The translations under genes were made by a program, and so were the position numbers. Shown piece after piece: positions 6,611-63,960 of a DNA stretch of 64,000 bases. The notes under the pieces are model-generated. The model was given only the letters and a program-made list of their open reading frames with translations. It was not told the origin of the DNA and ran no database searches. Within the stretch, counting starts at the first letter, position 1, and the number at the start of each line of letters is the position of its first letter. Origin of the DNA: Candidatus Zambryskibacteria bacterium RIFCSPHIGHO2_01_FULL_43_25 (lineage in GTDB: Bacteria; Patescibacteriota; Minisyncoccia; Phycocordibacterales; Zambryskibacteraceae); assembly GCA_001823695.1 (NCBI GenBank), contig MHVD01000015.1, forward strand, positions 2,445-66,444. Direction: 5' to 3'.

Positions 6611-6640
6611 TTGATAATCTTTCCTTGTCTGATAGAATAT

Positions 6641-8706: not shown

Positions 8707-8836
8707 AATACAAAAGGAGCCCCGCACCCGTGACCGCTCCAATGAATCCGCCGAGACCCACGACGAGACCCCAGCCGAAACCTCCTTTCGTCTCTTGGTT
8801 TTTCTTCTTGAGCCACTGCCAGACATATCTGAACAT
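8696..8836 (-). CDS. 46-aa Gly-zipper hydrophobic peptide (GC-rich small gene)
   Basis: Manual translation MFRYVWQWLKKKNQETKGGFGWGLVVGLGGFIGAVTGAGLLLYFLY; ~60% GC; AAGGA 10 nt upstream; stop lies inside palindrome c. Confidence 0.3.
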   Translation of the reverse strand: MFRYVWQWLKKKNQETKGGFGWGLVVGLGGFIGAVTGAGLLLYFLY

Positions 8837-8923
8837 AGCATCCGTCCTTGTTGAAGTTAATAAACTGTTTTCCGATGGTATTATAACAATATGTTGTTAA
8901 TAAGTCAAGAACATCACCCATAG

Positions 8924-8964: not shown

Positions 8965-9070
8965 GCGGTATAAAAGGAACAACTTGTGCGAATTGTCCGG
9001 CGGGGAGGCGATATGCTGATTTACAGCCCGACAAATTGCTTAGAGGGTTTTTTTCTTGTAGTATCTTCTT

Positions 9071-10321
9071 ATGCTGCAATCAAAACTTTTCTCAAAAACC
9101 CGCCGAGAATCGCCCAAAGACGATGTCTCAAAGAACGCTTCAATTCTTATCCGCGCCGGCTTTATAAACAAAGAAATGGCGGGGGTTTACTCATTCCTGC
9201 CTTTAGGACTTCGCACCCTTAACAAGATAATTCAAATAATCCGCGAAGAGATGGACGCGCTCGGCGGACAAGAACTTCTTATGTCCGCGCTTCAGGAGAA
9301 AGAAACGTGGGAAGCAAGCGATCGCTGGGACGACGATGTTGTGGATGTTTGGTTCAAAACGAAATTAAAAAACAATACAGAAATCGGTCTAGCGACAACT
9401 CACGAAGAACCACTGACGAAACTTCTAACCGAACACATTCACTCCTACAGAGACTTGCCGACGCTTGTTTATCAATTCCAAACCAAATTCAGAAATGAAC
9501 TCCGCGCCAAGGGAGGTCTCTTGCGAACGCGCGAATTTATAATGAAAGATCTCTATAGTTTCTGCAGAGACAAAGAAGAGCATGGGAAAGTGTACGAATC
9601 TTTGAAGAAGGCCTATGTGAAGATATTTGAAAGAGTCGGTCTCGGAGACATCACTTATCTGACCTTTGCTTCTGGGGGCAGTTTTAGTCCTTATTCGCAC
9701 GAATTTCAGACTGTCACGCTTGCCGGAGAAGACAATATTTATGTAGACGAAGGCAAAAGAATCGCCGTCAACGCAGAAGTGCTCAAAGATGAAGTTCTGT
9801 CCGATCTTGGTTTAAAAAAGGAGGATTTAATCCCCAAAAAGGCAATAGAAGTCGGCAACATTTTCACGCTTGGCACCAGATTTTCGGAAGCCTTAGGTCT
9901 CGTGTATGCTGACGAGGCCGGAGTGAAAAAACCCGTATTTATGGGCAGTTACGGCATTGGTCCGGCGCGCCTTATGGGCACAATAATTGAGGCGCTTGGC
10001 TCCGACAATGAAATGATCTGGCCGGAGAACGTTGCTCCATTTAGAGTTCATTTGATAAATCTTGGCAATGACAAAAACGCCAAAGAGCAGACGTTGAAAA
10101 TTTACAAAACCCTGACTGATAAAGGCGTAGAAGTTCTCTGCGATGACAGAGACGGAGCGACTGCCGGAGAAAAATTTGGAGATGCCGACCTTATCGGCAT
10201 ACCGTTGAGGGTGGTTGTAAGCGAGAAGTCTATATCTTCCGGGGGGGTGGAATTTGTTGATAGACGGGACGGCAAGGTCTCCATAATATCGGCCAAAGAA
10301 GCTGTAGAAAAATTGAAATAA
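9071..10321 (+). CDS. proS: prolyl-tRNA synthetase (short form without editing domain)
   Basis: 416 aa class II aaRS with ProRS N-terminal signature. Confidence 0.9.
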   Translation: MLQSKLFSKTRRESPKDDVSKNASILIRAGFINKEMAGVYSFLPLGLRTLNKIIQIIREEMDALGGQELLMSALQEKETWEASDRWDDDVVDVWFKTKLKNNTEIGLATTHEEPLTKLLTEHIHSYRDLPTLVYQFQTKFRNELRAKGGLLRTREFIMKDLYSFCRDKEEHGKVYESLKKAYVKIFERVGLGDITYLTFASGGSFSPYSHEFQTVTLAGEDNIYVDEGKRIAVNAEVLKDEVLSDLGLKKEDLIPKKAIEVGNIFTLGTRFSEALGLVYADEAGVKKPVFMGSYGIGPARLMGTIIEALGSDNEMIWPENVAPFRVHLINLGNDKNAKEQTLKIYKTLTDKGVEVLCDDRDGATAGEKFGDADLIGIPLRVVVSEKSISSGGVEFVDRRDGKVSIISAKEAVEKLK

Positions 10322-14382: not shown

Positions 14383-14976
14383 TTACTTCACGCTCGGCCC
14401 GCTGGAGGCGGAGCGAGGGCGAACGAGACGAGCAAGGCGAAGCCAATCGTGCGCGAGCCAGCGCCAGAGCAGGAGCCACGAGCGACCGCCCCAGGACAGG
14501 TACGGGACGTGCCGGTCGCCAGCCGCGTGGACGACAACGGTGCCGGAGAGCGGGATGTACGTCCCCGTCGGCAGGCCGAAGCCCTCATTGCGATACTTTG
14601 CAATGAAGGCCAGGCCATGGCGCAGGCCGAGGTCAGCCCGTGCGCTGGCCGCCCGAGACAACATCTCGTCGCTTGAGATGCTGTCTCGGCTGTTCTCGAG
14701 GAGCTCGATGAACTCGAGCTCCAGTGTGCCGACGGGTCCGACTGCGTCCTTCTCGACGCGGTCGATCCAATCCGGGAACTGGAGCTCTTCGGTCCCCGTC
14801 ACGGTGATGACAGGAATGAAGATCTCGCGAACTGCCCGAGCGAGCGCGGCATCGAACTTCGCACGCAACTCGCTCGGCCCGTCAATCAGGACCTGCGCGA
14901 GATGAGGAACGATTTCGTCCGGCGCGGGAAGGGCGCGGACGATCGAGGCCACTAGCTCGTTGAATTGCCGGGACAT
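14383..14976 (-). CDS. hypothetical protein, 197 aa, ~62% GC (foreign-looking cassette)
   Basis: Long ORF in GC-rich island; GGAGG 6 nt before ATG; protein-like composition, no recognised motif. Confidence 0.45.
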   Translation of the reverse strand: MSRQFNELVASIVRALPAPDEIVPHLAQVLIDGPSELRAKFDAALARAVREIFIPVITVTGTEELQFPDWIDRVEKDAVGPVGTLELEFIELLENSRDSISSDEMLSRAASARADLGLRHGLAFIAKYRNEGFGLPTGTYIPLSGTVVVHAAGDRHVPYLSWGGRSWLLLWRWLAHDWLRLARLVRPRSASSGPSVK

Positions 14977-17379: not shown

Positions 17380-17473
17380 GAGATAAGAAAGAACAGAAAT
17401 TAAACCCAGTTTTTTGTTCTTTTAGCTTCCTTTGTTCTTTTAGCCTCCTTCGATTTATTTTTCAACTCCATTT

Positions 17474-17513
17474 TCATTATACCCCTTATTCGGGCGAATA
17501 AGGGGTATAATGA
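17474..17513 (+). promoter_or_regulatory. 40-bp palindrome (18-bp perfect arms) embedding TATAAT: candidate ArsR operator/promoter
   Basis: TCATTATACCCCTTATTC-GGGC-GAATAAGGGGTATAATGA, 40 bp upstream of arsR ATG. Confidence 0.5.
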
Positions 17514-17553
17514 AAGATGTGGTGGGGCGCGGTGAGTGTGATGATAAAAGCAG

Positions 17554-17835
17554 ATGAAAGAAACTGAAAAAATATTAAAGGCGTTAGCCAACAGAAGAAG
17601 ACTGGTAATGATTCAATATTTAAGAAAAGAAAAAGAGGCGGCCGTAGGAGGTGTCGCTAATCATTTGAAATTATCTTTCAAGGCAACTTCAAGACATCTA
17701 AATGTTCTATATTCAGCTGGGATTGTGGATAGGGAACAGAGAAATGTGGAAGTGTGGTATAGACTGTCGCCGACCTTACACCCAATCGCGAAATTTATCT
17801 CTAATTCGCTTGCCTACCTGCGCAGGCAGGAATAG
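17554..17835 (+). CDS. arsR: ArsR/SmtB-family HTH repressor (paralog 1)
   Basis: 93 aa; winged-helix segment SFKATSRHLNVLYSAGIV. Confidence 0.75.
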   Translation: MKETEKILKALANRRRLVMIQYLRKEKEAAVGGVANHLKLSFKATSRHLNVLYSAGIVDREQRNVEVWYRLSPTLHPIAKFISNSLAYLRRQE

Positions 17836-23397: not shown

Positions 23398-23714
23398 GAG
23401 TAAATACTGCGGTACTTAAAGATACGAGAGTAATATTTTGGGGCATCGCCTGCCTTACTGCCGGCCTTGCGGTTTTTTATATCTTGGGCATCAACCAAAC
23501 AGTGAGAAATGTCGCTGAACGGCAGATTCTTGAGACTGAACTGTCCTCCATTTCAAACAAAATAGCAGAGTTGGAATTTTCATACATTGCGCTAAAAAAT
23601 AATATAACAATTAATACGGCTTTTGAGCTCGGCTTTGAACAGGTTAAAGAAGTTGTCTATGTCTCAAGGAAGCCAGCCGTTGCCTTCGCTTCAACTTTTC
23701 CTCAAACTCCATAG
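23394..23714 (+). CDS. ftsL: cell division protein FtsL-like
   Basis: 106 aa, one TM + coiled coil, between rsmH and ftsI. Confidence 0.5.
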   Translation: MRVNTAVLKDTRVIFWGIACLTAGLAVFYILGINQTVRNVAERQILETELSSISNKIAELEFSYIALKNNITINTAFELGFEQVKEVVYVSRKPAVAFASTFPQTP

Positions 23715-23720
23715 CAACAA

Positions 23721-23943
23721 TACTGTATAATTTCTAACGGGATGAATCCCGTAAGAAATAGGAAATACTCCCTAGAAAGAAATTAAAACGGGGATTAAAG
23801 TTAATTATTTAAAAAAAGCCAAAATATTGGTTGCGATGCATAAGTATTTCCGTAATTAAACGGTTTCCGTTGTGCTAACACAACGAGTAAGGGTGATATG
23901 AACGGAGTTTTACAAGATAAACTGCATAATTTCTAACGGGATG
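23721..23943 (+). repeat. start-codon-abutting element (family g) copy 1
   Basis: 5' end ...ATGAATCCCGTAAGAAATAGGAAAT, 3' end TTTACAAGATAAACTGCATAATTTCTAACGGG fused to ftsI ATG. Confidence 0.65.
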
Positions 23944-25653
23944 AAACAACAGTCAGTACGGAGAATCCGAATAATTTCCACTGGCATCTTTTTGTTTGCT
24001 ATGGTGCTTGTCAGCAGACTCTATTTTCTTCAAATAGTTTCGGGGGATGAACTTGCCGGCAGGGCCGACAGGCAGTACGTCCAGTCAAGCTACGATTACT
24101 TCAACCGCGGCTCCGTTTTTCTTACCAGCAAAACCGGTGAAAAGGTCTCTGCGGCAACGTTAAAGACCGGCTTCATCGTGGCGCTAAATCCGAAACTGAT
24201 TGAAGACCCGGAGATGTTGTATAACACGCTTTTACCTTTGATTTCAATTGAAAACAGGGAGGCCTTTCTTGAGAAAGCGGAAAAGTCTGACGATACGTAC
24301 GAACAAATAGCTCAAAAAATTCCAAAAGAAATTGCTGACGAGATTTCAGCTCTAAAAATACCCGGAGTTTCCATATATAAACAAAGATGGAGATATTATC
24401 CCGGCAACACTCTGGCGGCGCACACATTGGGCTTTATTGCATACAAGGAGGACGAATTGGCCGGAAGGTACGGCCTTGAGAGATATTATGAAGATACGCT
24501 GAATCGCAACAACGACTCGGTGTTTGTTAATTTCTTCGCAGAAATTTTTTCCAATGTTGAAAGCGGGGTGTCCGACGAAAAAAAATTGGAAGGAGACATC
24601 GTAACGAGCATTGAGCCGACAGTCGAGGCCTTTCTTGAGGAGGAGCTTCGTAAAATAAACGAGAAGTGGTCGTCCCAATATTCGGGAGGCATCATTATCA
24701 ATCCGATGAATGGCGAAATTTACGCGATGGCCATTAATCCAACCTTTGACCCAAACAGCATCGGAAGCGCCAAAAATTCCGATATCTTCAAGAATCATCT
24801 CGTTGAGAGCGTGTATGAGATGGGCTCTATCATAAAACCTCTAACCATTGCCGCCGGTCTGGACGCGGGAGCCATAACCGCCAAGTCCACATACTTTGAC
24901 GCCGGCTTTCTGACTCTCAACAACAAAACAATATCAAACTACGACGGTAGGGGGAGGGGACTGGTTTCTATGCAGGAGGTGCTCAATCAATCCCTCAACA
25001 CCGGCGCCGCCTTTGCAGTCAGCGCCATGGGCAAGGGGACTTTTGCCAAATATATGTTTGATTTCGGAGTGGCTGAAGAGACCGGCATTGACCTGCCGAA
25101 CGAGACTCACGGTCTTGTAGAGAACCTGAAAAGTCCACGCGATATTGAATACGCTACTGCTTCCTATGGCCAGGGTATGGCGCTCACCCCGATAGAAACC
25201 GTTCGCGCCATGGCGGCGCTTGGTAATGGCGGGATGCTCGTGAATCCCCACATTGTAACGAAAATAGATTACTCAATCGGCGGAGGCAAGAAAATTGTGC
25301 CCAATCCAAGTAAACAAGTTCTTACCAAAGAAACCTCCGAAGAGATTACCAGAATGTTGGTTCATGTGGTTGATAACGCGCTTCTCAACGGCCAAGCGAA
25401 AATTCCCAATTACAGCGTGGCGGCAAAAACGGGTACAGCCCAAGTTGCCAATCCCGAAGGCGGAGGATACTATACGGATGTGTTCCTTCACTCATTTTTC
25501 GGTTATTTTCCGGCTTATAATCCGCAATTCCTGGTGTTTCTGTACACTTTTGACCCCAAAGAGGTGAAATATGCTTCGGAAACGCTCACTGTCTCTTTCC
25601 TTGATATAACCAAATTTTTAATAAATTATTATGAAATACCGCCCGACCGTTAA
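23941..25653 (+). CDS. ftsI: peptidoglycan D,D-transpeptidase FtsI (PBP3-like)
   Basis: SIIKP (SxxK) transpeptidase motif; dcw position. Confidence 0.85.
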   Translation: MKQQSVRRIRIISTGIFLFAMVLVSRLYFLQIVSGDELAGRADRQYVQSSYDYFNRGSVFLTSKTGEKVSAATLKTGFIVALNPKLIEDPEMLYNTLLPLISIENREAFLEKAEKSDDTYEQIAQKIPKEIADEISALKIPGVSIYKQRWRYYPGNTLAAHTLGFIAYKEDELAGRYGLERYYEDTLNRNNDSVFVNFFAEIFSNVESGVSDEKKLEGDIVTSIEPTVEAFLEEELRKINEKWSSQYSGGIIINPMNGEIYAMAINPTFDPNSIGSAKNSDIFKNHLVESVYEMGSIIKPLTIAAGLDAGAITAKSTYFDAGFLTLNNKTISNYDGRGRGLVSMQEVLNQSLNTGAAFAVSAMGKGTFAKYMFDFGVAEETGIDLPNETHGLVENLKSPRDIEYATASYGQGMALTPIETVRAMAALGNGGMLVNPHIVTKIDYSIGGGKKIVPNPSKQVLTKETSEEITRMLVHVVDNALLNGQAKIPNYSVAAKTGTAQVANPEGGGYYTDVFLHSFFGYFPAYNPQFLVFLYTFDPKEVKYASETLTVSFLDITKFLINYYEIPPDR

Positions 25654-25692: not shown

Positions 25693-25911
25693 CAATTTCT
25701 TACGGAATGAATCCCGTTAGAAATAGGAAATGCCAATAAACAAAAATTAGATATAAACAAGTCATGACTTTACTCGAAAAAGAAGCGGGGATAAGAAACT
25801 GGAGCTCAGGCATTTCCGTTGAAGAAAATGACTTTAGCCGTATTAATATAAGATGTATCGGTATGTCCAAATTGGCTTTACAAAATTAACTCATGGATTT
25901 CTTACGGGATG
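25693..25911 (+). repeat. start-codon-abutting element (family g) copy 2
   Basis: Same terminal sequences as copy 1, variable interior; 3' end fused to murF ATG. Confidence 0.65.
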
Positions 25912-27210
25912 AAGCAAATTTTTAAGAAAATAATAGTTGCCGTGCTGACTTGGGAGGCGCGTCTTGTGTTGGCAAAATATAAGCCGAAAATTGTTGCTGT
26001 CACGGGAAGCGTCGGCAAGACGGGAAGCAAGGACGCCATATATTGTGTTTTGTCCAAATTCTTTTTTGTCCGTAAGAGTGAAAAAAGCTTCAACAGCGAA
26101 ATCGGAGTACCGCTGGCCATCCTAGGTTTACCAAATGCATGGAGCAATCCACTCCTGTGGCTGACGAATCTATCGGAAGGGCTCATACTTATTTTGTTTA
26201 AAGCTAGATACCCGCAATGGCTTGTTCTTGAAGTTGGTGCGGACAGACCGGGAGATATTGCTGGAATTGCAAGGTGGCTTCGGCCGGACATTGTGGCCGT
26301 AACGAGGCTAGGCAAGACCCCAGTCCACATTGAATTTTTTGAATCAGCGGAGGAGCTCTTCAAAGAGAAGCGTTCTCTTATAAAATATCTTAAACCGGAA
26401 GGGTCGCTGGTTCTCAATTATGATGATGAGGATGTGCGCAAATTTTCCGAAAACTTCTCCGGAAATATAAAGTACTTCGGCCTAGAAACGCAGGCGGATA
26501 TCTTTGGTTCATATTATGAAATTAATTACAAAGAAAAATCAGGAATAAAAATTCCTGCCGGATTTTCATACAAGGCGGATGCAAGTGGTTTGGTAAAAAC
26601 CGTATCGGTGAATGGCTGCATAGGAAGGCAGTATATGTACGCTACTCTTTGTGCGTTGGCTGTAGGGCTTGCTCTTAAGCTTGACCTGCATGAAATGACG
26701 CAGGCATTAAGCGAGTTTGATCCGCCTCGGGGCAGAATGAACCTGATTTCCGGAATAAGAGATAGTCTTGTCATTGACGATTCGTACAATTCTTCGCCCG
26801 TAGCTCTTATGGAAGCGCTGGAGAGTCTAAAGTTTATTAAATCCTCCGGCAGGAAAATTGCGGTTCTGGGAGATATGCTTGAACTCGGGACCCATACGGT
26901 TGATGCCCACAGAGAGGCGGGAGAAAAGGCGGGGCAATTCTGCGATATTCTTGCTACGGTTGGATTGCGGGCGCAGAATATCGCGATGGGCGCAATTGAA
27001 GCTGGGATGAAAGACAAAAATATATTTCAATACGAGAATTCGCGCGAAGCCGGAAAGAAACTGAAATCCAAAATCGCCGAGGGTGATATTGTTTTAATAA
27101 AAGGTTCGCAGGGTGTCAGGATGGAGAGAGTGGTTGAGGCGGTGATGGCGCATCCTGAAAATAAGGAGAAAATCTTGGTGAGACAGGATGAGGAGTGGAA
27201 AAACAGATAA
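25909..27210 (+). CDS. murF: UDP-MurNAc-tripeptide--D-Ala-D-Ala ligase MurF
   Basis: Mur ligase P-loop VTGSVGKTGSK; dcw position. Confidence 0.8.
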   Translation: MKQIFKKIIVAVLTWEARLVLAKYKPKIVAVTGSVGKTGSKDAIYCVLSKFFFVRKSEKSFNSEIGVPLAILGLPNAWSNPLLWLTNLSEGLILILFKARYPQWLVLEVGADRPGDIAGIARWLRPDIVAVTRLGKTPVHIEFFESAEELFKEKRSLIKYLKPEGSLVLNYDDEDVRKFSENFSGNIKYFGLETQADIFGSYYEINYKEKSGIKIPAGFSYKADASGLVKTVSVNGCIGRQYMYATLCALAVGLALKLDLHEMTQALSEFDPPRGRMNLISGIRDSLVIDDSYNSSPVALMEALESLKFIKSSGRKIAVLGDMLELGTHTVDAHREAGEKAGQFCDILATVGLRAQNIAMGAIEAGMKDKNIFQYENSREAGKKLKSKIAEGDIVLIKGSQGVRMERVVEAVMAHPENKEKILVRQDEEWKNR

Positions 27211-28365: not shown

Positions 28366-28432
28366 TTAAAACAGAACAAATATATCATTTTTACAAGAAA
28401 AATGTTAGATTTTTTGCTTTATTTAATTTGTT

Positions 28433-28462
28433 ATTCTAGTATTTTGCAAAACATTAGAATAG
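28433..28462. repeat. degenerate copy of palindrome c (TATTCTAGTATTTTGCAAAACATTAGAATA)
   Basis: Shares CTAGTATTTTGCAAAAC core with copies at 8671 and 58826. Confidence 0.4.
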
Positions 28463-28877
28463 ATAAGTTTGTGTTTTTATATACAGTTTGTTAGCATAAC
28501 ATAACTCCGGCACGGCGATTTGCCCCGCAATCTAAGTACCGAGCTGGGGTTGTCTGGTCGCGGGGAAGTGTCCAGACTTGTGTGGCTATGGTTAGCCTTA
28601 TCGACCATTGAGTTGGTATCGGTGCATTACCATAAGCCATCAACCCTTCCGCGAGGAAGGCGTATATTACCCTCAACGCTGTATAAGTGTTTGAGGGTAA
28701 CTTGTTTTTATACTTTCACCCTTGCCGCTCCCTGTCTTTTTTTCCACGACTCAAACTATTCTACTATTCGCGCGAATTAGAGATATGTTTAGGTTTTGTA
28801 ATAATTTGGTTTTTTTATTTTACACCTAACATTTATAATGTTATTATTTTCTCGGAAACCTGAACCTTGGAGGGTGT

Positions 28878-29213
28878 ATGGCAAGGAAAAAGAAGACTCA
28901 GCCACCCAAGTACTACGTGGAACCGATCCCGCTTGAGGGGTCCCCAGTCAATTCGTGGCTCGCCGAGAGGTTGGATGCGGAAAAGGACACCTTGAGTGCG
29001 TACGACGCTCAGGGGATCCATCACAACGTCTGGGTATGCGACCTCGAGACCATGAGACTTCTCAAGTTCATCGCCGAGAGCCGTGCGAGGGAGGGCTGGT
29101 CGTACGAGGTCTTCAACATGATGGATGACGGCCGCCTAAAGAAGATCAGGGGTGAGTATCGAGTCAAACAACCTCGCAGGGGAGTCTTCTTCCCGGCACC
29201 GACGCACTCCTGA
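28878..29213 (+). CDS. hypothetical protein, 111 aa, ~57% GC cassette
   Basis: GGAGGG SD 5 nt upstream; own terminator 29232-29271. Confidence 0.4.
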   Translation: MARKKKTQPPKYYVEPIPLEGSPVNSWLAERLDAEKDTLSAYDAQGIHHNVWVCDLETMRLLKFIAESRAREGWSYEVFNMMDDGRLKKIRGEYRVKQPRRGVFFPAPTHS

Positions 29214-29271: not shown

Positions 29272-29278
29272 ACTGACT

Positions 29279-29318
29279 ATTCTATTTGATATTTTGCGCA
29301 AAATATCAAATAGAATAC
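29279..29318. repeat. 40-bp perfect palindrome (family e): TATTCTATTTGATATTTTGCGCAAAATATCAAATAGAATA
   Basis: Second copy at 31669-31698. Confidence 0.5.
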
Positions 29319-29685: not shown

Positions 29686-29955
29686 CTATTCGATCGAATT
29701 AGAGATGTGTTTGACGATGGGGTGAGTATTATTCGATGGGGAATACCACATCTGGAGACTTTTCTGTTCTCGGTCAACAATTCCAGCAGAATATAAAACT
29801 CCCAAATGTTTGGAAGTTGCTGTAAACGATAGTTTGATAGTATCAGCAATATCTCCAACCATTACCTTCTTTTTCTTTTTTAGGATTTTAATGATCTGAA
29901 GCCTCCTTCTGTTGGCCAGAGCTTTTAATATCTTTTCAGCTTCTTTTTCTATCAT
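29686..29955 (-). CDS. arsR: ArsR/SmtB-family HTH repressor (paralog 2)
   Basis: 89 aa, ~60% identical to paralog 1. Confidence 0.7.
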   Translation of the reverse strand: MIEKEAEKILKALANRRRLQIIKILKKKKKVMVGDIADTIKLSFTATSKHLGVLYSAGIVDREQKSLQMWYSPSNNTHPIVKHISNSIE

Positions 29956-29961
29956 ACAATC

Positions 29962-30001
29962 ATAATAAACTATTTTCTAATTCGTACAAATTAGAAAATA
30001 G
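29962..30001 (-). promoter_or_regulatory. leaderless-type promoter TTTGTA-17-TATTAT overlapped by 32-bp palindrome CTATTTTCTAATT-CGTACA-AATTAGAAAATAG (candidate ArsR2 operator)
   Basis: 13-bp perfect arms; -10 lies 6 nt before ATG. Confidence 0.5.
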
Positions 30002-30065
30002 TGTATATGTTAGCTATGACTAGTTGCCGAACCAGCATTAGTGATTGTTTTTTAAGGCAACCAGT

Positions 30066-30323
30066 TTACATCCTAGACTTTACAAGTGTGGACAGTTCAT
30101 TTATGTGGGCTTCTTTGTCTGCGGTCATTTTTTGCCAGAAGGCGAGCACTTCTGCGTCTCCCTCGGCGTCTTTGAGATATTCGTCTTTTATGCGCCAGAG
30201 ACTTCTGTTTTCAACTGTAAGCTGAAGCAGGAGGTTGTATAAATTATTTTTGAGCATTTTGCAAAAGCTAGCTAATAATGATTGATTATATAACAAATCT
30301 CGTGCGAGATATTGGTTCCGCAT
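30066..30323 (-). CDS. hypothetical helical protein (85 aa)
   Basis: ORF only. Confidence 0.25.
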   Translation of the reverse strand: MRNQYLARDLLYNQSLLASFCKMLKNNLYNLLLQLTVENRSLWRIKDEYLKDAEGDAEVLAFWQKMTADKEAHINELSTLVKSRM

Positions 30324-30389
30324 GATGTGGGGCCGGTTTCTAATGGGGCGATGAAAGCATCAAAAAAAGCGAAAAGTCTCAAAAACCCA

Positions 30390-30427
30390 TTGGTATAATA
30401 AATAACGATCGTTATTTATTATACCAA
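30390..30427. repeat. 38-bp perfect palindrome (family d): TTGGTATAATAAATAACGATCGTTATTTATTATACCAA
   Basis: Identical copies at 35049-35084 and 58917-58954; each arm contains extended -10-like TGGTATAAT. Confidence 0.55.
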
Positions 30428-30502
30428 TCCGGAAATTCAAAAAAAGTGATGGCAAGAGGGAGAGTGAATTGGGGAAAATCAATGAAATCTTACAACGGGA
30501 CA

Positions 30503-30560: not shown

Positions 30561-30926
30561 TCAGTCCCCAACGCGTTTGTCGTATCTGATCGTACGGTCG
30601 AAGGCATCATCTTCATTTACATCCTCGACCAGTTGACGGACTCTTTCCGTCTGCTGGTCTGGTCTCGATGCCTTCCTGCCGGACCGTTGAGGCCTGGGCG
30701 ACCTCCGCACCTGACTTATTGGTGGGTCGGTGGCCTTCTGCCCAGCGGTCATAATGCGCCTCTTGAACTCCTTGAGGCTTTCCTTGGGGCCCCTGTACAT
30801 CTCGTAGTACTCGTTCCAGGCCCTGTACCCGGCGGTTTGGTAGTCACCCTCCCGCTTGATCTCAAGGACTCTCCTATCGATCGCGGAACGGATTTCAACC
30901 TCGGCCATACCCTTGATGTTGGCCAT
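30561..30926 (-). CDS. hypothetical protein, 121 aa, ~60% GC cassette
   Basis: GGGAGAGG SD; own terminator. Confidence 0.4.
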   Translation of the reverse strand: MANIKGMAEVEIRSAIDRRVLEIKREGDYQTAGYRAWNEYYEMYRGPKESLKEFKRRIMTAGQKATDPPISQVRRSPRPQRSGRKASRPDQQTERVRQLVEDVNEDDAFDRTIRYDKRVGD

Positions 30927-31144
30927 TGTTCCTCTCCCGTGAACAATGTGAGACGACGTACGCCTTCTAATGTTTATTGTAGCATATTAGATATTAAAAG
31001 TCAATATAAAGTGTGGAAAAATTAGAAATATAGCTCTACGTAAGGGTTTTTTACAGGTAAAAAATTTTCGCATAGCTTATCCAGCCAAAACTAAAAACAT
31101 TCTCATATTCTTAAGAATATGAGAATGTTTTATTTCTGAATTTA

Positions 31145-31591: not shown

Positions 31592-31668
31592 GATAATTTC
31601 ATTATAACTAATAACAAACAACCTACAACTTACAACAAAAAACAAAAGACGAAAAACTAAACATTATT

Positions 31669-31698
31669 ATATTTGATATTTTGCGCAAAATATCAAAT
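31669..31698. repeat. palindrome family e copy 2 (TATTTGATATTTTGCGCAAAATATCAAATA)
   Basis: Identical 30-bp core to 29279-29318. Confidence 0.45.
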
Positions 31699-31757
31699 AG
31701 ATAAGGTAAAAAATAAACGAAGTTTAGTTAACTATGCAAAGCCGGACTTTGCATAAA

Positions 31758-33906: not shown

Positions 33907-33993
33907 AAAAGAGAAGCAATCTTAATTGACAACATACTAACAAACTTAAGTTTGTTAGTATGTTGTATTTGTGATGTAGTTATATAAAAAGAA

Positions 33994-34283: not shown

Positions 34284-34426
34284 CCCGTAAGAAACCCTGC
34301 CTGTGCAGGCAGGCGCGGTCACGGTTTCAGTTGGAACTGAATAATAGGCATGTCTTATAAGGGGTATAATATTTACAAATATAATTTTTAGCAGGGTGCG
34401 GCTGACCGCGACCTGTTTCTAACGGG
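34284..34426 (+). repeat. start-codon-abutting element (family g), short copy upstream of rplU
   Basis: TCCCGTAAGAAAC ... GACCTGTTTCTAACGGG fused to ATG. Confidence 0.5.
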
Positions 34427-34837
34427 ATGGCAGATAAAAAAGAAACTATCAAAAAAGCTACAAGTGCTCCTAAAAAGAGCTCGGCTAAAGTTGTGGCAAA
34501 AGAAAAACCTGCGACCAAGGGTGGGAAGGTGGAATCGGCTGTTATATTTACAGGAGGCAAGCAATATATCGTTTCGTCAGGAGACAGATTGAAGATTGAA
34601 AAGATAAAAGGGGATTATAAAGAGGGCGACAAGGTGAAGTTTGATAAAGTATTACTTACCGTAAATGGCGGTAAAGCGACACTGGGCAACCCCTTTATTT
34701 CCGGCGCGTCAGTTTCGGCGACAATTTCAAAGATAGGAAAAGCCAAGAAGGTTACGGTTATAAAATATAAACAAAAAAGCCGATATTTCAAAAAGCGAGG
34801 ACACAGGCAGCCATTTTTTGAAGTTGTGATTGACTAG
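34427..34837 (+). CDS. rplU: 50S ribosomal protein L21 with Lys-rich N-extension
   Basis: Core YIVSSGDRLKIEKI...VKFDKVLL matches L21. Confidence 0.85.
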   Translation: MADKKETIKKATSAPKKSSAKVVAKEKPATKGGKVESAVIFTGGKQYIVSSGDRLKIEKIKGDYKEGDKVKFDKVLLTVNGGKATLGNPFISGASVSATISKIGKAKKVTVIKYKQKSRYFKKRGHRQPFFEVVID

Positions 34838-34872: not shown

Positions 34873-34914
34873 AATCATCACATATTTTTGCTATAGCAAA
34901 AATATGTGATGATT
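34873..34914. repeat. 42-bp perfect palindrome AATCATCACATATTTTTGCTA|TAGCAAAAATATGTGATGATT
   Basis: Single copy between convergent rplU and recR. Confidence 0.45.
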
Positions 34915-35048
34915 TTCCTAACTAGGAAATTTCGCATTAGGGCATCCTATCCAAGGGCGACATCGTTTAATTGTATTAGCCGCCAAGAGGGTGAAGAGGA
35001 GCTTATTGTGTAACTGCGGAAAATCCCCAGTCTCCAATAAATTGTTAA

Positions 35049-35084
35049 TGGTATAATAAATAACGATCGTTATTTATTATACCA
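35049..35084. repeat. palindrome family d copy 2
   Basis: Identical to 30390-30427 core. Confidence 0.55.
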
Positions 35085-35136
35085 ATTAGAAAAACGTCAA
35101 AATTTAAGGAAACGTCAAGATTCTGTTATTAAGAAA

Positions 35137-41595: not shown

Positions 41596-41766
41596 AACTG
41601 CGGGGAACGAATCGGGATAACATGAAAATGATAAATCCTGTAGTAGAAAATGACATTGTAGAAACTAGGAAAAGGGAGATACTTTAAAAAATAATGGAGG
41701 CAAATTTATCAATTATAATTACAAGACAAATTACTCGTAAGGAGTAATGTCATTTTTCACTACAGG
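41596..41766 (+). repeat. hybrid element: family g 5' arm (TCCCGTTAGAAAC) + family a arms (CCTGTAGTAGAAAATGACAT ... ATGTCATTTTTCACTACAGG) abutting rplI ATG
   Basis: Read directly. Confidence 0.55.
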
Positions 41767-42213
41767 ATGAAAGTCATACTCTTAAAAGATATTGCCAAAA
41801 TCGGCCATAAATACGAAGTGAAAAATGTCGCCGAAGGGTATGCGCAGAACTTTCTTTTTCCAAGAGGATTGGCAAAGATGGCTACTAGTTCCGCAATAAA
41901 TGAGTTGGAAGTTCTGAAAAGACAGCACGAGGAGGAAAGAAAGATAAGAGAGGATTTACTTTTGAAAAACTTAGGAGACGTAGAGTCGCTTATCATTGAA
42001 ACCGAAGAAAAAGCCAATGACCAAGGTCACTTATTTGCTGGTATTAATGCGCTGGAAATAGCAGAGATTATAAAAGAAAAAAGCAGACTGGATATTCCTG
42101 TTCAATGCATTGAGCTTGAAAAGCCGATAAAGGAAATCGGAGAACACAAAATTCCTCTGAAAATTCAGGACAAAAAAGCGGAGTTTACTTTAGTAGTAAA
42201 AGCAAAAGTATAG
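41767..42213 (+). CDS. rplI: 50S ribosomal protein L9
   Basis: MKVILLKDI...NFLFPRGLA L9 N-domain. Confidence 0.85.
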   Translation: MKVILLKDIAKIGHKYEVKNVAEGYAQNFLFPRGLAKMATSSAINELEVLKRQHEEERKIREDLLLKNLGDVESLIIETEEKANDQGHLFAGINALEIAEIIKEKSRLDIPVQCIELEKPIKEIGEHKIPLKIQDKKAEFTLVVKAKV

Positions 42214-43110: not shown

Positions 43111-43142
43111 GGGGAATAAAGAATTACGAATTAAGAATGAAG
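43111..43142. repeat. family f tandem repeat (GGGGAATAAAGAATTACGAATTAAGAATGAAG)
   Basis: Adjacent to terminator of GC-rich gene. Confidence 0.4.
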
Positions 43143-43188
43143 AAACCCCGACCCCCGCTCCGTCAGTTGACGGATACGGGAGTCGGGG
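43137..43188 (-). terminator. intrinsic terminator CCCCGAC...TCCGTCAGTTGACGGA...GTCGGGG + T-run (- strand)
   Basis: Contains TCCGTCAGTTGACGGA core also at 37714 and 58785. Confidence 0.55.
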
Positions 43189-43271
43189 TTCGGGGTACGC
43201 ATATTACTCCGAGGGGAGAAATGAGAAGCCCCCGACACTTCGGTGTCGGGGGCAAGGTTGTTGTGGACCGA

Positions 43272-43643
43272 TCAGAGGAACACAGCCCGCTCGAACTGAC
43301 TCAGAGCTGGACGGGGGACTCGTTCGTCGTTCACGAGATGTACCCAGAGGTCGTACCATTCCTTGTGGTACTCCATCCATCCGAATCCGGAATCTCGCAC
43401 CGTCTGATGAGCGCCGAAGCCCTCACTCTGAACATGACGGAGCGTATCACGGAGCTGTCTGACTGGGGTCACTTTCTCCTCGACCCACCTCTCGAAGAGT
43501 TCGGGGTACGCCAGCCAGAGATCCCAAACCCCGAACCCGAAGAGTGCGAGTTTGTGAATCACGTATCTCGGGTTGCTCTCCGAGAAGAGCTCCTCATCGA
43601 GCTGATGCTCTCGCAGAGCATTCCTGATCGACTGGTAGGACAT
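43272..43643 (-). CDS. hypothetical Trp-rich protein, 123 aa, ~57% GC cassette
   Basis: AGGAGGG SD 3 nt before ATG; own terminator. Confidence 0.4.
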   Translation of the reverse strand: MSYQSIRNALREHQLDEELFSESNPRYVIHKLALFGFGVWDLWLAYPELFERWVEEKVTPVRQLRDTLRHVQSEGFGAHQTVRDSGFGWMEYHKEWYDLWVHLVNDERVPRPALSQFERAVFL

Positions 43644-43860
43644 GATCCCTCCTGGAGTGTGCGGTTAGACCGCACCCCTCTCAAGCGAGAGACCATTCAC
43701 TTCTCGAGTGCGGTAGTTGTCTTTCGAGACCGCTTAGCTACTTAGCATTGTTGCCTCCAATATTGAGGTTCAAGGGTCTTTGTATATACTACTATAACTA
43801 CAACAATATGTCAAATCAAATGAAAGTCTACATGTTTTCGCAAAAAATAGCAAATTCATA

Positions 43861-45903: not shown

Positions 45904-46106
45904 AATGAATCCCGTAAGAAATAGGAAATGTAACATATATGAAAATAAAAAAGCAAACAATTTATATACTCGAAAAAGGAGATGCGGCTGGTTGTGGGAC
46001 ATAAACATTTCCGTAGTTAAATAGTTGGTAGGTATATTAATATTGAGCAAATAAGAAAAATTCATTTAAATTTTACAAGACAAACTAAATAATTTCTAAC
46101 GGGATG
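45904..46106 (+). repeat. start-codon-abutting element (family g) copy 3
   Basis: Flanked by ATGAA on both sides; removal plus one ATGAA restores a 16-bp spacer between ATPase stop and hlyD ATG. Confidence 0.65.
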
Positions 46107-47624
46107 AAAGAAAAAATAAAAAAAGTTACTGAAAACATAAAAAGACACAAGATTATTTCTGCTGTTGCGCTTATGGTCATAATTGCAGTTATCGCGGGAA
46201 TTGCCGGCAGGAGCGGAAATGGCAAGGAATACGTTACTGTTGATAGTGGAGAAGTGGTTGTCGAAGTAGCTGTTACAGGCAAGGTGAAGGCCCTCCGCGA
46301 CGTATCGCTGTCTTTCGAAAAGGCCGGTAGAATCGCTTACGCGCCATTTTCAATCGGGGACGCGGTAAGCGCGAGCCAAGTTTTAGCTTCTTTGGACAAG
46401 TCTCAAGCGAACGCTGACTTGCTGAAGGCTCGCGCCGCGCTTCAAGTTGAGGAGGTTGCACTTACAAAACTCAAGCAAAGCGCTCCAAATGACTACAATG
46501 ACGCCAAAGCGAATCTCGTCGCCTCCATTGAGGATGCTTATGTGAAAACTGACGATGCCGTGAGAAACAACGCCGATCAATTTTTTAAGAATCCAAGAAC
46601 GAGCGCTAATTACCTTGAATTTTCTTTTATCGACGGAGGCACTATTTATAATTTCCCGATTGATACGGATTTGAAGATAAAGATTAATAACGAAAGGTAC
46701 GCTTTGGAACTGTCGCTGAATAAATGGCAGGCGGGCCTGCTGTCCGTAAATTCGGCGCCTTTACTTGATTCGTTTGTCGCCGAAGCTGAGTCCGTTCTCA
46801 AGCAAGCAAACATTTTCTTAAACGACCTAGCGCTGGCCGCCAATTCCATTGTCCCGTCAGAATTCCAGTATGAGGCGACTATCAGCGGGTATAAGACGAC
46901 TATAACAGGGGCAAGAAGCGGGGTGGGGGGTGCTCTCGCAAGCTTGATCGCTGCAAAGCAGAGTTGGAATGCCGCACCTCAGATTATAACTGGAGGACAG
47001 GGCGGCTATGATGACGTCTTGTCGCAAGAGGCGAAAGTAGCCCAAGCAGAGGCCACAGTTAAAGCCGCAGAAGTTGATTTGTTGAAAACTGAAATTCGTT
47101 CTCCCATAGACGGGGTATTGTCAGTGCAAAATGGCGAAGTCGGTGAAATAGCCACAGTCAATACGCCAATTGTAGGCATAATTTCGGACAAACAATTTGA
47201 AATTGAAGCTGATGTCTCAGAGGTTAATGTGGGTAAAATTGGCATTGGAAATGAAGTCAGTATTACCTTTGACGCTTTCTTGGGCCAAGTATTTACGGGA
47301 GAAGTTTTCAGCATAGAACCTTCTGAAACGATTGTTGACGGGGTGGTTAATTTTAAAACTAAAATTCGCATACCAGAGAATTCTGTTGGGCTCAAGAACG
47401 GCTTGACGGCAAATTTGAAAATAAAATCGGCTTCCAAGACGGACGTTCTAAGAATCCCCCAGTACGCGCTAAAAAAAAGAGACGATGTTTTGATTGCGCG
47501 AGTGCAAACCAGCGATGGTGTTGAAGAAAGAGTGGTTTCAACCGGACTTATCGGTTCAAACGGATTTGTTGAAATAGTGAGCGGCTTAAACGGGGGAGAG
47601 AGGGTGCTGATTAGCAGTGAATAA
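46104..47624 (+). CDS. HlyD-family periplasmic adaptor-like protein (YknX/MacA-like)
   Basis: N-terminal TM, long coiled coil, C-terminal beta-barrel. Confidence 0.6.
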   Translation: MKEKIKKVTENIKRHKIISAVALMVIIAVIAGIAGRSGNGKEYVTVDSGEVVVEVAVTGKVKALRDVSLSFEKAGRIAYAPFSIGDAVSASQVLASLDKSQANADLLKARAALQVEEVALTKLKQSAPNDYNDAKANLVASIEDAYVKTDDAVRNNADQFFKNPRTSANYLEFSFIDGGTIYNFPIDTDLKIKINNERYALELSLNKWQAGLLSVNSAPLLDSFVAEAESVLKQANIFLNDLALAANSIVPSEFQYEATISGYKTTITGARSGVGGALASLIAAKQSWNAAPQIITGGQGGYDDVLSQEAKVAQAEATVKAAEVDLLKTEIRSPIDGVLSVQNGEVGEIATVNTPIVGIISDKQFEIEADVSEVNVGKIGIGNEVSITFDAFLGQVFTGEVFSIEPSETIVDGVVNFKTKIRIPENSVGLKNGLTANLKIKSASKTDVLRIPQYALKKRDDVLIARVQTSDGVEERVVSTGLIGSNGFVEIVSGLNGGERVLISSE

Positions 47625-47734: not shown

Positions 47735-48148
47735 CTAGCGAGAGCGCTTCATTTGCAACCCCCTGTCCTTGAGGGCCGCGTTCTCGAGCGCGAGTTCAGC
47801 ATACATACGCTTGAGTCTTGTGTTCTGGTTTTCCAGATCCCGCAACCGCTCTTGGTCTTGCATCGCGGACCCGCCCAACATCTCGATGAACAACTTGCTC
47901 TCGGATATACCAAGCGCCCTAGCAATCAGGTGGACTTGGGGAACCGTGAGATGCGCGCGCCCCTTCTCGACACGATGCAGGTGCGCAACCGAGACTCCTC
48001 TCTTCGCGGGATCAACTTTCTTGGTTGCACCCCAGAGAGCACGCAGGGAGAACCTCCGCTCCGTGCGATTGTTGCGCAAGGCGATCGCCTCGGCAGACAA
48101 AGACACAGAACCCCTCTCGGGATTTGCGTCTGCAACTACGGATGACAT
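47735..48148 (-). CDS. XRE-family HTH transcriptional regulator with C-terminal coiled coil (58% GC)
   Basis: HTH LTVPQVHLIARALGISESKLF; GGAG SD. Confidence 0.6.
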   Translation of the reverse strand: MSSVVADANPERGSVSLSAEAIALRNNRTERRFSLRALWGATKKVDPAKRGVSVAHLHRVEKGRAHLTVPQVHLIARALGISESKLFIEMLGGSAMQDQERLRDLENQNTRLKRMYAELALENAALKDRGLQMKRSR

Positions 48149-58190: not shown

Positions 58191-58465
58191 CGTTTTATTA
58201 TGTTTCTACATTTCACTTTGTCGTTCTCCAAACTTTTTGAAATTTTGTTAAAATCCGCTAGCGAATATAATATCAGAAAAAGCGTGACTTAGGCATTGGG
58301 CTCTAGGAACTAGGTTTTAGAATTGGCCCTTTAACTTGATTGACTTTTTGTTTGGTACAGCTTTTAGAGCACGAGACATCGTTCTTTAAAAGCTGTACCA
58401 ACGCTTACCCGTGAGTCCTCGGTATAGGGCCGAGAGAGGAAAGGTAAACATGCGAGGAGGATAAG

Positions 58466-58636
58466 ATGGGACACAGAATGGGGACAAACCAGGCGCTGGC
58501 GCTCGCAGGGGCTCTCACCCAGAAATTACCGGCCGACTTAGACCAGGATGTCGCGAAAGCGTGGATTACCAGTCCCGTCGCGATCACGGCTTTCCTCGAA
58601 GGCCTTCGTTCCTATCCAGTCGTCTTTCCGGACTGA
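58466..58636 (+). CDS. 56-aa hypothetical protein in 60% GC island
   Basis: GAGGAGG SD 6 nt before ATG. Confidence 0.3.
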   Translation: MGHRMGTNQALALAGALTQKLPADLDQDVAKAWITSPVAITAFLEGLRSYPVVFPD

Positions 58637-58678
58637 GTACGGGGAATACCCGAGGACACACCGTTCCACAACGGCAAG

Positions 58679-58870
58679 ATGGCGATCCACGAGTTCCTTG
58701 CAGACGACGAGCAGTATGTCGTCGGCGAGAAAATGTTCGCACGAGCCAAGATCAGACCGCGGCTTGGCTACCCCGACGACCACATCCGTCAGTTGACGGA
58801 GTGGTGTCGGGACTCTTTTTGTTTTCTCTATACTAGTGTTTTGCAAAACACTAGTATAGGAGAGTTCTGA
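58679..58870 (+). CDS. 63-aa hypothetical protein in GC island
   Basis: Ends at TCCGTCAGTTGACGGA hairpin; C-terminus runs into palindrome c so true stop uncertain. Confidence 0.2.
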   Translation: MAIHEFLADDEQYVVGEKMFARAKIRPRLGYPDDHIRQLTEWCRDSFCFLYTSVLQNTSIGEF

Positions 58871-58955
58871 AATTTCCTTATTTTTTCCAATTTCCATAAT
58901 CTTCCCATTTTCCTCATTGGTATAATAAATAACGATCGTTATTTATTATACCAAT
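58826..58955. repeat. composite repeat unit: palindrome c + 47-bp linker + palindrome d (inverse orientation of 8603-8706 unit)
   Basis: CTCTATACTAGTGTTTTGCAAAACACTAGTATAGGAGAG ... TTGGTATAATAAATAACGATCGTTATTTATTATACCAA. Confidence 0.6.
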
Positions 58956-59057
58956 GGGTTTTCATTTGAAAGAGGGTAGATTTTTCTTTTCAGGTTTTAG
59001 GTTTTAAGTTAAATGTTATAAGTTACATTTTTTGGTTGTGGTCACGCTCTTGCCAAG

Positions 59058-62883: not shown

Positions 62884-63315
62884 ATGCGAATCATGGCCAA
62901 GGGAATCGTCGCCATACCAATTCTTCTCCTCTCGGCGTTCGTTCTTATCTTGGTCGATGAGAACTTGTTACCGCCGATGTCGGTCTCCACGAAAGTGAAG
63001 ACAGTCGAGAAGCACTTTTTCGCTCTACCAAGCGAAAAAGTGGCAAAGGAGTGGCGAGCTGACGCACCCGTCACCCTCATACAGAGCGGATGGGCTGACG
63101 GAGACCGAATGATTCTCGGCGTGGATGACAGTAGGTTCGCGAAGTTCATCGGCAGTGGTATGGAGGTGAAGGTGGTTCGTATCGAATATGATCTACCGTT
63201 CACTCACATACTGCATCGTCGTACACCGAGCCTACTAGCTCGCAACACGCGAGCTGTAGTCACAACTGGCAGCGGGGACGAGGTGGTGGTCGAGGGGATC
63301 TTCCGCTGGAAGTAA
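62884..63315 (+). CDS. hypothetical membrane-anchored protein, 143 aa, ~55% GC cassette
   Basis: AAGGAG SD; N-terminal TM. Confidence 0.4.
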   Translation: MRIMAKGIVAIPILLLSAFVLILVDENLLPPMSVSTKVKTVEKHFFALPSEKVAKEWRADAPVTLIQSGWADGDRMILGVDDSRFAKFIGSGMEVKVVRIEYDLPFTHILHRRTPSLLARNTRAVVTTGSGDEVVVEGIFRWK

Positions 63316-63344: not shown

Positions 63345-63960
63345 CCTGAAAAATGGTGCCAGGTGTTTTTCTATACCAGGAAACCCCGCCCGAAGGCGGC
63401 GTCGTTAAAATATATTAGCCGCCGAGAGGGCGGGGATGAATGGAACCTTGCACGTCGCATACGAAGTATGCGACGCTATTCTCATGAGGATTCAGCACCT
63501 AAATCACTCAACCTACCAACATCAGTACCATGTGGTGTGGGGCACAAAATACAGAAGAAAAATACTAAAACCATATGTTCTCAAGGAACTCAAGAAAAGT
63601 CTCTACGAAACGTGCAAAAAATACCCGACGCTCTGGATCGAGAGCATGAATACGAACGAAGACCACGTCCACATACAGATAGAAATACCACCAAACATAA
63701 CTATTTCAGATGCCGTCGGGAAACTGAAAGGATTGAGCAGCCGCCACTTACGTTCAAAATTCAGATTTATCAGGGAAATCTACCTGGAAAAAGACGGCAT
63801 CTGGAGTGTCGGGTATTTCACCTCAACTGTGGGACTGAACGAGAGTCAGGTCAAGAAATACATAGAATGGCAGAGCAAGAAAGACAAACCACAAAGATCC
63901 CGTCTATTCTGAATCCTCATGCCAACAAAGGAAACCCCGCCCTTTAGGGCGGGGAGGAGG
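63345..63960 (+). mobile_element. IS200/IS605-family insertion sequence (tnpA only) with subterminal hairpins
   Basis: Left hairpins CCTGGCACC...GGTGCCAGG and CCCCGCCC...GGGCGGGG, right hairpin CCCCGCCC-TTTA-GGGCGGGG; GGAAACCCCGCCC repeated at both ends. Confidence 0.6.
63436..63912 (+). CDS. tnpA: IS200-like Y1 (HUH) transposase TnpA
   Basis: HVHIQIEIPP (HuH) and YQHQYHVVWGTKYRRKIL. Confidence 0.85.
   Translation: MNGTLHVAYEVCDAILMRIQHLNHSTYQHQYHVVWGTKYRRKILKPYVLKELKKSLYETCKKYPTLWIESMNTNEDHVHIQIEIPPNITISDAVGKLKGLSSRHLRSKFRFIREIYLEKDGIWSVGYFTSTVGLNESQVKKYIEWQSKKDKPQRSRLF

Follow-up and report, generated by a model that had tools for sequence, protein, structure and literature searches.

What is the function of long, perfect palindromes that recur with identical sequence between the genes of a bacterium? 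We addressed this question for a stretch of 64,000 nucleotides (the window) from a Candidatus Zambryskibacteria (Parcubacteria) of Rifle groundwater, an uncultivated organism whose window proteins are encoded on contigs from the Rifle aquifer. An earlier note on this DNA had described two such palindromes, d and c, and had suggested either recent mobility of a REP/RAYT-like kind or an operator for a dimeric regulator. In a collection holding one genome per species, the nearest relatives were Parcubacteria/Paceibacteria with MraY identity of only 68%, and literature searches returned nothing on such palindromes in this phylum. Because members of the Candidate Phyla Radiation are uncultivated, next to nothing has been learned, to our knowledge, about how they regulate their genes.

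We located three copies of palindrome d in the window, none with an assigned strand:

30390–30427, no strand: palindrome d, copy 1; perfect over 30389–30428; 65 nt upstream of a small gene at 30066–30323 (minus strand).
35048–35085, no strand: palindrome d, copy 2; in the spacer between the convergent genes rplU and recR, 51 nt past the recR stop.
58917–58954, no strand: palindrome d, copy 3; perfect over 58915–58956 (21-nt arms); TGGTATAAT in each arm; GGGTTTT next on the plus strand.

The exact 38-mer is found at 30390–30427 and 58917–58954. Identity of 100% had been reported for all three copies, which is correct for the 36-bp core (35049–35084 in the remaining copy) but not for the 38-mer, since at 35048–35085 one outer base differs (ATGG instead of TTGG). 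None of 100 shuffled sequences matched d. The extended −10-like box noted earlier in each arm, TGGTATAAT, was read directly from the sequence, and neither the scan nor reading of the sequence revealed a sigma-70 −35 box at the right distance in c or d. Copy 1 also lies downstream of a GC-rich ORFan (30561–30926, minus strand) and is followed on the minus strand by GGGTTTTT.

Copies of d are not restricted to the window. Eight are known in total, the other five being on other contigs of the same population, and a metagenome scan returned the further loci L007, L008 (with its duplicate L009) and L010. The d on L007 occupies the same place as the d on contig L001, in a strain that is 99.8% identical. 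L008 and L010 each carry two copies, 531 bp apart (L008 7349–7913) and 706 bp apart (L010 8953–9692), respectively. The L008 pair, which shares about 20 nt of flanking sequence, encloses a GC-rich ORFan with its own promoter and terminator, and the L010 copy at 8953 sits between divergent genes. Six of the eight copies have a gene start 20–240 nt downstream, with copies outside the window preceding relA, an ORFan and trpS, and two (35048 and L010 9657) lie in spacers between convergent genes; the distance from stop codons ranges from 51 to 152 nt. The flanks of the eight copies are unrelated except for short shared modules. Beyond this population, an exact scan for d across 185,579 species-representative genomes (one per species) gave no matches, as did scans of viral contigs for d and for c.

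The 34-bp core of d is invariant across all eight copies. The linker that adjoins d diverges by 3.5–4% between copies, and at that rate the probability of seeing no change in eight copies of d is approximately 0.004–0.009, so the core is more conserved than its neighbor. An invariant core beside a drifting linker agrees with recognition at the level of DNA. Identity of 100% over 34 bp at eight sites exceeds the usual constraint imposed by binding, which suggests recent copying or gene conversion as well.

The linker belongs to a larger arrangement, in which c and d had been described as joined in two composites adjoining GC-rich small ORFs, with c at 8671 and 58826 and a degenerate copy near 28433. 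We annotated this arrangement as follows:

8603–8706, plus strand: composite copy A, upstream of proS; truncated d arm (8603–8616), linker (8617–8670) and c (8671–8706), with the tail and a GC-rich fragment next.
28432–28461, no strand: degenerate c-like palindrome c', about 70 nt upstream of tRNA-Glu (minus strand).
58352–58401, no strand: imperfect palindrome I3, bounding the GC-rich insert on its other side, with d-like ends TTGGTA...TACCAA.
58466–58870, plus strand: GC-rich ORFan, one 134-codon frame with an in-frame TGA at 58634–58636; its 3' end enters the tail and c.
58796–58825, minus strand: conserved tail after c, GAGAAAACRAAAAGAnCCCCGACACC (minus strand), beyond which the copies diverge.
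58826–58861, no strand: palindrome c, copy B, with a perfect 32-bp core at 58828–58859.
58862–58916, minus strand: linker from d to c, conserved in three composite copies; an ATG at 58897 opens a frame running through c.

The degenerate copy was thus located, and both c sites are real, but the 58826–58861 copy differs at three bases from that at 8671–8706, the only place where c is exact as originally written and where it has one asymmetric position. Similarly, the composite is real (95.9% identity over 98 nt between 8607–8704 and 58925–58828), but the d of the 8603 copy is truncated, with only about 14 nt of one arm remaining (CTATTTATACCAAT). A third, full d-linker-c composite is found on L001, between a histidine kinase gene and trpS. 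More copies of c and d occur just outside the window; beyond its right end, on L001, a solo c adjoins a GC-rich block containing an IS200 element, and beyond its left end there is a c copy with a truncated left arm. Every c copy is followed by the conserved tail GAGAAAACGAAAAGAnCCCCGACACC and points to a downstream housekeeping gene (proS, mraY, trpS or aspS). We read d-linker-c-tail as a two-site module of about 150 bp, present in no fewer than three spacers, those preceding proS, the mraY operon and trpS. Three of the five differences in the linker reading frame are synonymous, which is too few to call the linker coding, and a search with the ORF starting in the linker returned no further composite copies.

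Both composites do abut GC-rich DNA, with a GC content of 0.57 at 58402–58825 and 0.52 at 8707–8860 versus 0.44 for the window, and the ORFs in this DNA have high GC3. GC-rich ORFan DNA meets the c tail by its 3' end, and the ORFs at 58679–58870 and 8696–8836 enter c before stopping. The ORFan at 58466–58870 looks like a decaying foreign gene; its broken frame, together with the ORFs running into c, suggests that foreign fragments landed by a c that was already there. Palindrome-bearing spacers were enriched beside GC-rich ORFans (7/12 vs 10/66, odds ratio 7.8, P = 0.003). The GC-rich ORFs beside palindromes matched no Pfam or PHROG family and had no homologues beyond their own entries. A weak cro-like PHROG match was seen for ORF 47735–48148 in the wider set scanned. 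The idea that both composites are elements flanked by d was dropped, as the similarity to d of I3 (58352) and of 8874–8908 is not above background. The segment 34915–35046 is not GC-rich.

A candidate protein partner for d is encoded on L010, which we infer to be part of the same genome as the window because it carries identical d, comes from the same sample series as L007 and has similar GC content. Here, the two d copies bracket a gene at 9017–9580, one lying 28 nt before the ATG and the other 77 nt after the stop; the gene is next to rplJ-rplL, and the divergent unit leads to rplJ-rplL. Its product has 187 amino acids and consists of a winged helix followed by a Cas2-like domain (PaaX_M; Pfam PF20803, E = 7e-23). 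A structure model (pLDDT 82–92 over residues 60–187) had E. coli PaaX (8a39) as its best Foldseek match, followed by Cas2 proteins, and sequence searches of the PDB gave no significant match. Where Cas2 has its active-site residue, as the first strand ends, the Cas2-like domain keeps an invariant Asp, and it also carries a Q.SVW motif. We rejected the protein as a true PaaX, as it is without the C-terminal effector domain, is shorter (187 vs approximately 300 amino acids) and scores far under the cut-off of the PaaX equivalog TIGR02277 (37.8 bits, cut-off 264.55). It has 2272 homologues, with source-given names of Parcubacteria-type (Patescibacteria) lineages. These homologues are often mislabelled Cas2.

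The bracketing extends to every species we examined. In this organism and seven others (L105, L101, L102, L107, L108, L109 and L031, with protein identities of 46–71%), a pair of palindromes brackets the orthologous PaaX_M gene. The upstream site lies 0–48 nt before the start codon in all eight, and in the seven further species the downstream site lies 0–85 nt past the stop codon. The palindromes of these seven are species-specific and about 28–46 bp long. The closest of them, L105 (71% identity), has the same rplJ-rplL synteny as L010, and its site, TGGTATAATAAACAAGCTATAGCTTGTTTATTATACCA, shares the outer arms of d (TGGTATAATAAA), keeps the TGGTATAAT element and has a symmetrically changed centre. 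The L101 site contains TATAAT. L107 has one more copy besides its pair; this dispersed site shares the 34-bp core exactly and lies at a distance of 6 kb, 185 nt before rpsS. In L102, the two copies are imperfect and in inverted orientation.

We then aligned on their dyads 15 sites from seven of the eight species, leaving out L031. Positions 10–16 from the dyad are symmetric in 15/15 sites, even as all four bases occur there among species; the C at position 3 is invariant, and positions 4–9 are often asymmetric. Symmetric outer arms around a free inner block correspond to two half-sites, a central element and a spacer, the pattern left by a dimeric DNA-binding protein. An RNA stem would be expected to differ, since selection on it would keep the inner pairs too.

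As the gene is bracketed by such palindromes in all eight species, d is probably the cognate DNA site of this small dimeric PaaX-type protein (winged helix plus Cas2-like domain, 187 amino acids). Of the two possibilities first raised, an operator of a dimeric regulator is thus favoured for d by gene bracketing with palindromes that co-vary across eight species, while for c no partner gene was found adjacent. The nearest precedent is PaaX of the phenylacetate regulon in E. coli and Pseudomonas, which likewise combines a winged helix with a central Cas2-like domain and has a palindromic operator just upstream. The PaaX site is only about 15 bp long, compared with 36–46 bp here, and the present system differs further in having palindromes on both sides of the gene, identical dispersed copies and no paa genes. 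ParB-parS, CIRCE/HrcA and Noc-NBS also comprise several identical perfect palindromes per genome, one of them at or near the gene of the binding protein; those proteins are of another family, the sites here are more than twice as long, and there is no sign here of a segregation role or a heat-shock regulon. Operators of winged-helix repressors are a known kind of system; unusual here are the length and perfection of the sites, their position on both sides of the regulator gene and the occurrence of identical copies elsewhere.

Palindromes also precede the genes of another winged-helix family. Each of the three ArsR/SmtB genes in the data lies 10–39 nt downstream of a 42–44-bp palindrome, and two of these palindromes are in the window:

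17472–17515, no strand: 44-bp palindrome with a 2-nt loop, 39 nt upstream of the ArsR/SmtB gene at 17554–17835; TATAAT in the arm facing the gene.
29965–30006, no strand: 42-bp near-perfect palindrome, 10 nt upstream of the second ArsR/SmtB gene (29686–29955, minus strand).

The third, on L033 from another species, has c'-like arms (CTATTCTAGTATT) and lies in a HisK-TrpS spacer, the place held by d-linker-c in this organism. On the basis of the ArsR palindromes and these c'-like arms, c is read as a second palindrome family of the same kind as d, an operator type, and by analogy its partner may be an ArsR/SmtB-type winged-helix repressor. No ArsR or other regulator gene is adjacent to c in the sequence available for this organism. 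The sites at 17472, 29965 and on L033 resemble the 12-2-12 operators of ArsR/SmtB in being AT-rich inverted repeats over the promoter of a small winged-helix autorepressor; they differ in that the repeats are 42–44 bp and nearly perfect, and in that c is without an adjacent ArsR gene here. A repeat at 28773 and 29695, CGAATTAGAGAT, was rejected as an operator, as it encodes the C-terminus of the ArsR paralogues.

How might such a site work? Binding, repression, promoter activity and the way in which the copies spread are what we infer here from the arrangement of the sites. Recognition by the protein most likely involves a pair of outer half-sites, about 10–18 bp from the dyad, plus the central C..G element. 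The extended −10 box in each d arm (TGGTATAAT) would fire through the centre, with transcription starting near the dyad and leaving via the other arm, and a dimer spanning the palindrome would mask the two −10 boxes together with the two start points, shutting off transcription in both directions. Bound d might also act as a roadblock, or d as a hairpin terminator, for incoming transcripts. On L010, this would amount to a compact bidirectional promoter-operator between the regulator gene and the divergent unit toward rplJ-rplL, and the three copies in the window would be additional sites of the PaaX-type protein in spacers. Of these, d at 30390 faces the small gene starting at 30323, d at 35048 lies between the ends of rplU and recR, and d at 58917 faces the linker, c and then, beyond the GC-rich insert, the mraY-ftsW-murG operon. 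Recombination or duplication may have carried copies of the composite into three or more spacers, with GC-rich foreign DNA landing by the c tail later.

Several observations run against the operator reading. The copies at 35048 and L010 9657 lie between convergent genes, where no promoter is needed, and the second, downstream site at the regulator gene (8/8 species) is atypical of autoregulated repressors. The perfect identity of the 34-bp core at eight sites, more than binding usually preserves, counts against it as well, as does the departure of the protein from a true PaaX. Together, the convergent-spacer copies and the constant downstream copy suggest a second role for d, as a roadblock or hairpin terminator. 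If the operator reading is right, a widespread Parcubacteria protein family with more than 2000 homologues is now paired with a predicted DNA site, and one species gains a first candidate regulon, with sites before relA, trpS and the mraY operon and on the rplJ-rplL side of the regulator locus. We know of no prior study of this PaaX_M/Cas2-like family, nor of genetics in this phylum.

The earlier suggestion of REP/RAYT-like mobility fails as a matter of family membership. The window contains one relevant gene:

63436–63912, plus strand: IS200-type Y1 transposase gene, with end hairpins GGGCGGGGTTTCCT at 63378–63391 and 63929–63942; not linked to c or d.

The IS200 model gives this gene 119.6 bits (cut-off 55), the RAYT model only 23.1 bits (cut-off 80). 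An association of the palindromes with IS200/TnpA had been proposed for checking, and none was seen: the hairpins at the two ends of the gene are GC-rich, occur only there and are unrelated to c or d. REPs are imperfect palindromes of 20–40 nt with a 5' GTAG/GTGG head, whereas c and d are perfect, loopless and headless. REPs number tens to hundreds per genome; eight copies of d are known from the contigs covered here. The composite was also rejected as a MITE, since its ends (d and the tail) are unrelated and form no terminal inverted repeats, and there are no target duplications or direct repeats at d or the composite. That c and d are true REPs mobilised by a RAYT, or MITEs that depend for movement on the nearby IS200-family transposase, is accordingly highly improbable despite a Y1 transposase gene 4.5 kb away and intergenic palindromes in a BIME-like mosaic. 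The comparison does hold as an analogy. In 8/8 species, one conserved and vertically inherited gene sits between species-specific palindromes of its own, as RAYT genes do between REPs or REPINs, and the same palindromes are scattered in spacers, the gene here being PaaX_M/Cas2-like and not Y1/HUH and the palindromes perfect, loopless, AT-rich and without a GTAG head.

The strongest rival to the operator reading builds on this analogy. It keeps the pairing of protein and palindrome and gives the protein an active role, as part of a selfish or domesticated system in which the winged-helix/Cas2-like protein cuts, copies or recombines the palindromes flanking it and so mobilises or captures short cassettes. 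The flanking of the gene on both sides in all eight species would fit, as would the opposed orientation of the imperfect L102 pair, the identical dispersed copies in two species, the d-ORFan-d structure on L008, the enrichment of palindrome-bearing spacers beside GC-rich ORFans and the invariant Asp and Q.SVW motif of the Cas2-like domain. We nevertheless consider it unlikely. The known copies number only eight, without a target-site duplication or a pair of empty and filled sites; no mobility was seen among contigs from many samples, which are 100% identical, every contig with window proteins being 100% or 99.9% identical to the window; the regulator gene stays next to rplJ-rplL in two species; and we know of no nuclease or recombinase activity in PaaX-type proteins. 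The particular form in which a Cas2-fold protein copies or recombines its own 36–46-bp palindromes, whose pairs delimit and perhaps capture or shuffle foreign cassettes in streamlined Parcubacteria genomes, is rather unlikely in our judgement. Were the protein to do more than bind, it would represent a second, independent invention of REP/RAYT logic and would link a Cas2-fold protein to palindromic repeats bordering foreign DNA. A related proposal would make the palindromes att-like sites of a tyrosine or serine recombinase, with cassettes inserted and excised as integron cassettes or pdif modules are. The d-cassette-d arrangements on L008 and L010, the cassettes in both orientations and, on reading the sequence, a site of about 38 bp whose ATAA-N6-TTAT centre is loosely like Xer cores would all be compatible with it. 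However, the genes called in the window and the neighbouring stretches examined included neither an integrase nor another recombinase, the R''/L''-L'/R' boxes of attC (RYYYAAC ... GTTRRRY) are absent from c and d on reading the sequence, the supposed cassette on L010 is a native gene with conserved synteny, and a fully symmetric centre gives no polarity, which makes such sites very unlikely. We treated the likeness of the d centre to dif, and of the c arms to FRT arms, as chance.

Returning to d as a probable operator of the PaaX-type protein, its remaining competitor is an action at the level of RNA, which bears on a wider class of palindromes. We counted in the window at least nine perfect, loopless palindromes (15–21-nt arms), compared with none in 30 simulated windows, and 9 of its 16 perfect inverted repeats (arms ≥12 nt) are loopless. 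Apart from c and d, these include:

29278–29317, no strand: 40-bp perfect palindrome; a second copy of the family at 31665–31701.
31094–31131, no strand: 38-bp perfect palindrome, 14 nt past the yqeY stop; two copies on L007 with a symmetric C/T change in both arms.
33929–33966, no strand: 38-bp perfect palindrome, 45 nt past the rmuC stop.
34873–34914, no strand: 42-bp perfect palindrome, 36 nt past the rplU stop; a relative with mirrored changes at L008 2282–2325.

Other palindromes of the window occupy the interval from the stop of a gene to the promoter of its neighbour. Loopless palindromes of 28–58 bp also turn up occasionally in related Paceibacteria, mostly ≤60 nt past a stop, some of them with A and T tracts.

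Could the palindromes work only as RNA hairpins, as long-stem bidirectional intrinsic terminators or insulators whose identical copies are incidental duplications? Like such terminators, they form strong hairpins between transcription units (−18 to −26.5 kcal/mol, z-scores −5 to −8), and a terminator scan flagged 58913–58958 plus TTTTCATTT as terminator-like. A short T run follows some of them, with GGGTTTT on three of the eight d copies, on the side facing away from the upstream gene. The 31094 family, 11–14 nt past stop codons, and the palindromes of other Paceibacteria close to stops, several with A/T tracts, also point this way, and some members of the class may be plain bidirectional terminators. 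For c and d themselves, we regard this explanation as quite unlikely. Most copies have no T run, which is absent after c; d lies 51–152 nt from stops; some of the flanked genes already have their own GC-rich terminators; and the stems differ from those of intrinsic terminators, which are G+C-rich with a 3–8-nt loop and an immediately adjoining T run, in being AT-rich and 16–21 bp long, with only four G-C pairs in d. In Rfam, only tRNA-Glu reached its gathering score, and the composite region gave weak microRNA-precursor matches well under theirs. The upstream copy before the regulator gene in 8/8 species is left unexplained by termination, as is the L010 copy at 8953 between divergent genes. 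Symmetric outer arms around a free inner block, a conservation pattern of protein sites, are unexpected for RNA stems, and so are self-complementary centres, which occur in six of the nine palindrome families of this organism (P ~4e-6) and agree with recognition at the DNA level.

Contigs of independent assemblies break inside palindrome c together with the linker that joins it to the 38-bp palindrome d, and inside a second 38-bp perfect palindrome; the palindromes therefore disturb assembly. The break points are the ends of L004 and L006 and the end of L100.

Palindromes at which assemblies break
window about 58850-58880: c and linker
window 31094-31131: 38-bp perfect palindrome

A further copy of c, truncated in its left arm, lies to the left of the window (L091 16168-16210), 70 nt before a small GIY-YIG gene (L091 16280-16700, about 2.1-2.5 kb from the window's left end). 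The gene has a tRNA-like 5' piece on one side and a complete tRNA on the other.

Six ORFs of the window stand out by their composition, with a GC content of 0.54-0.65 and GC3 of up to 0.79 vs 44% GC for the genome.

GC-rich ORFs of the window
14383-14976
28878-29213
30561-30926
43137-43745
47735-48148
62884-63315

At least two of them carry GC-rich terminators of their own. None matched Pfam, and PHROG returned a weak cro-like match for 47735-48148 only; 28878-29213 and 30561-30926, both searched against billions of proteins, had no homologue. Elsewhere, two small GC-rich ORFs at 58466-58870 form a single frame of 134 codons split by one in-frame TGA (58634-58636). It may be a pseudogene, or it may have come from a donor in which TGA is a sense codon. 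Between the degenerate c-like palindrome (28432-28461) and the ORF at 28878, a GC-richer, structured-looking stretch (28470-28760) matched no Rfam family and contains no convincing ORF. Next to it, the minus strand holds a fragment (28773-28790, coding ..HISNS..) that matches the ArsR paralogues at their 3' end, probably what is left of a third ArsR gene.

Repeats of other kinds involve start codons. In frr and rplI, the start-codon region pairs with an upstream segment through long-range inverted repeats (ATCCCGTAGTAGAAAATGACAT ... ATGTCATTTTTCACTACGGGATGA), and since another species has this motif before trpS, it looks like a conserved translational leader. Spacer modules, repeated and mutually inverted with the start codon included, occur between cell-wall genes and upstream of rplU.

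Long-range inverted repeats
window 6639-6774
window 41635-41770
L033 (another species) 6120-6258

Spacer modules ATGAATCCCGTAAGAAATAGGAAAT and TTTACA..CATAATTTCTAACGGGATGAA
window 23709-23949
window 25707-25917
window 45905-46112
window 34416-34445

Two further palindromes lie outside the window.

Palindromes on other contigs
L007 2036-2056: TATACCCCTAGGGGGTATA, directly upstream of a CsoR-like gene (2058-2330)
L014 (another Paceibacterota genome) 4864-4895: 32-bp perfect palindrome downstream of dnaJ, with GAGTGC..GCACTC

The palindrome on L007, a contig of a 99.8% identical strain, looks like a classic CsoR-type operator. Its half-site is found again in the 44-bp palindrome at window 17472-17515. 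The palindrome after dnaJ resembles an inverted CIRCE-like element.
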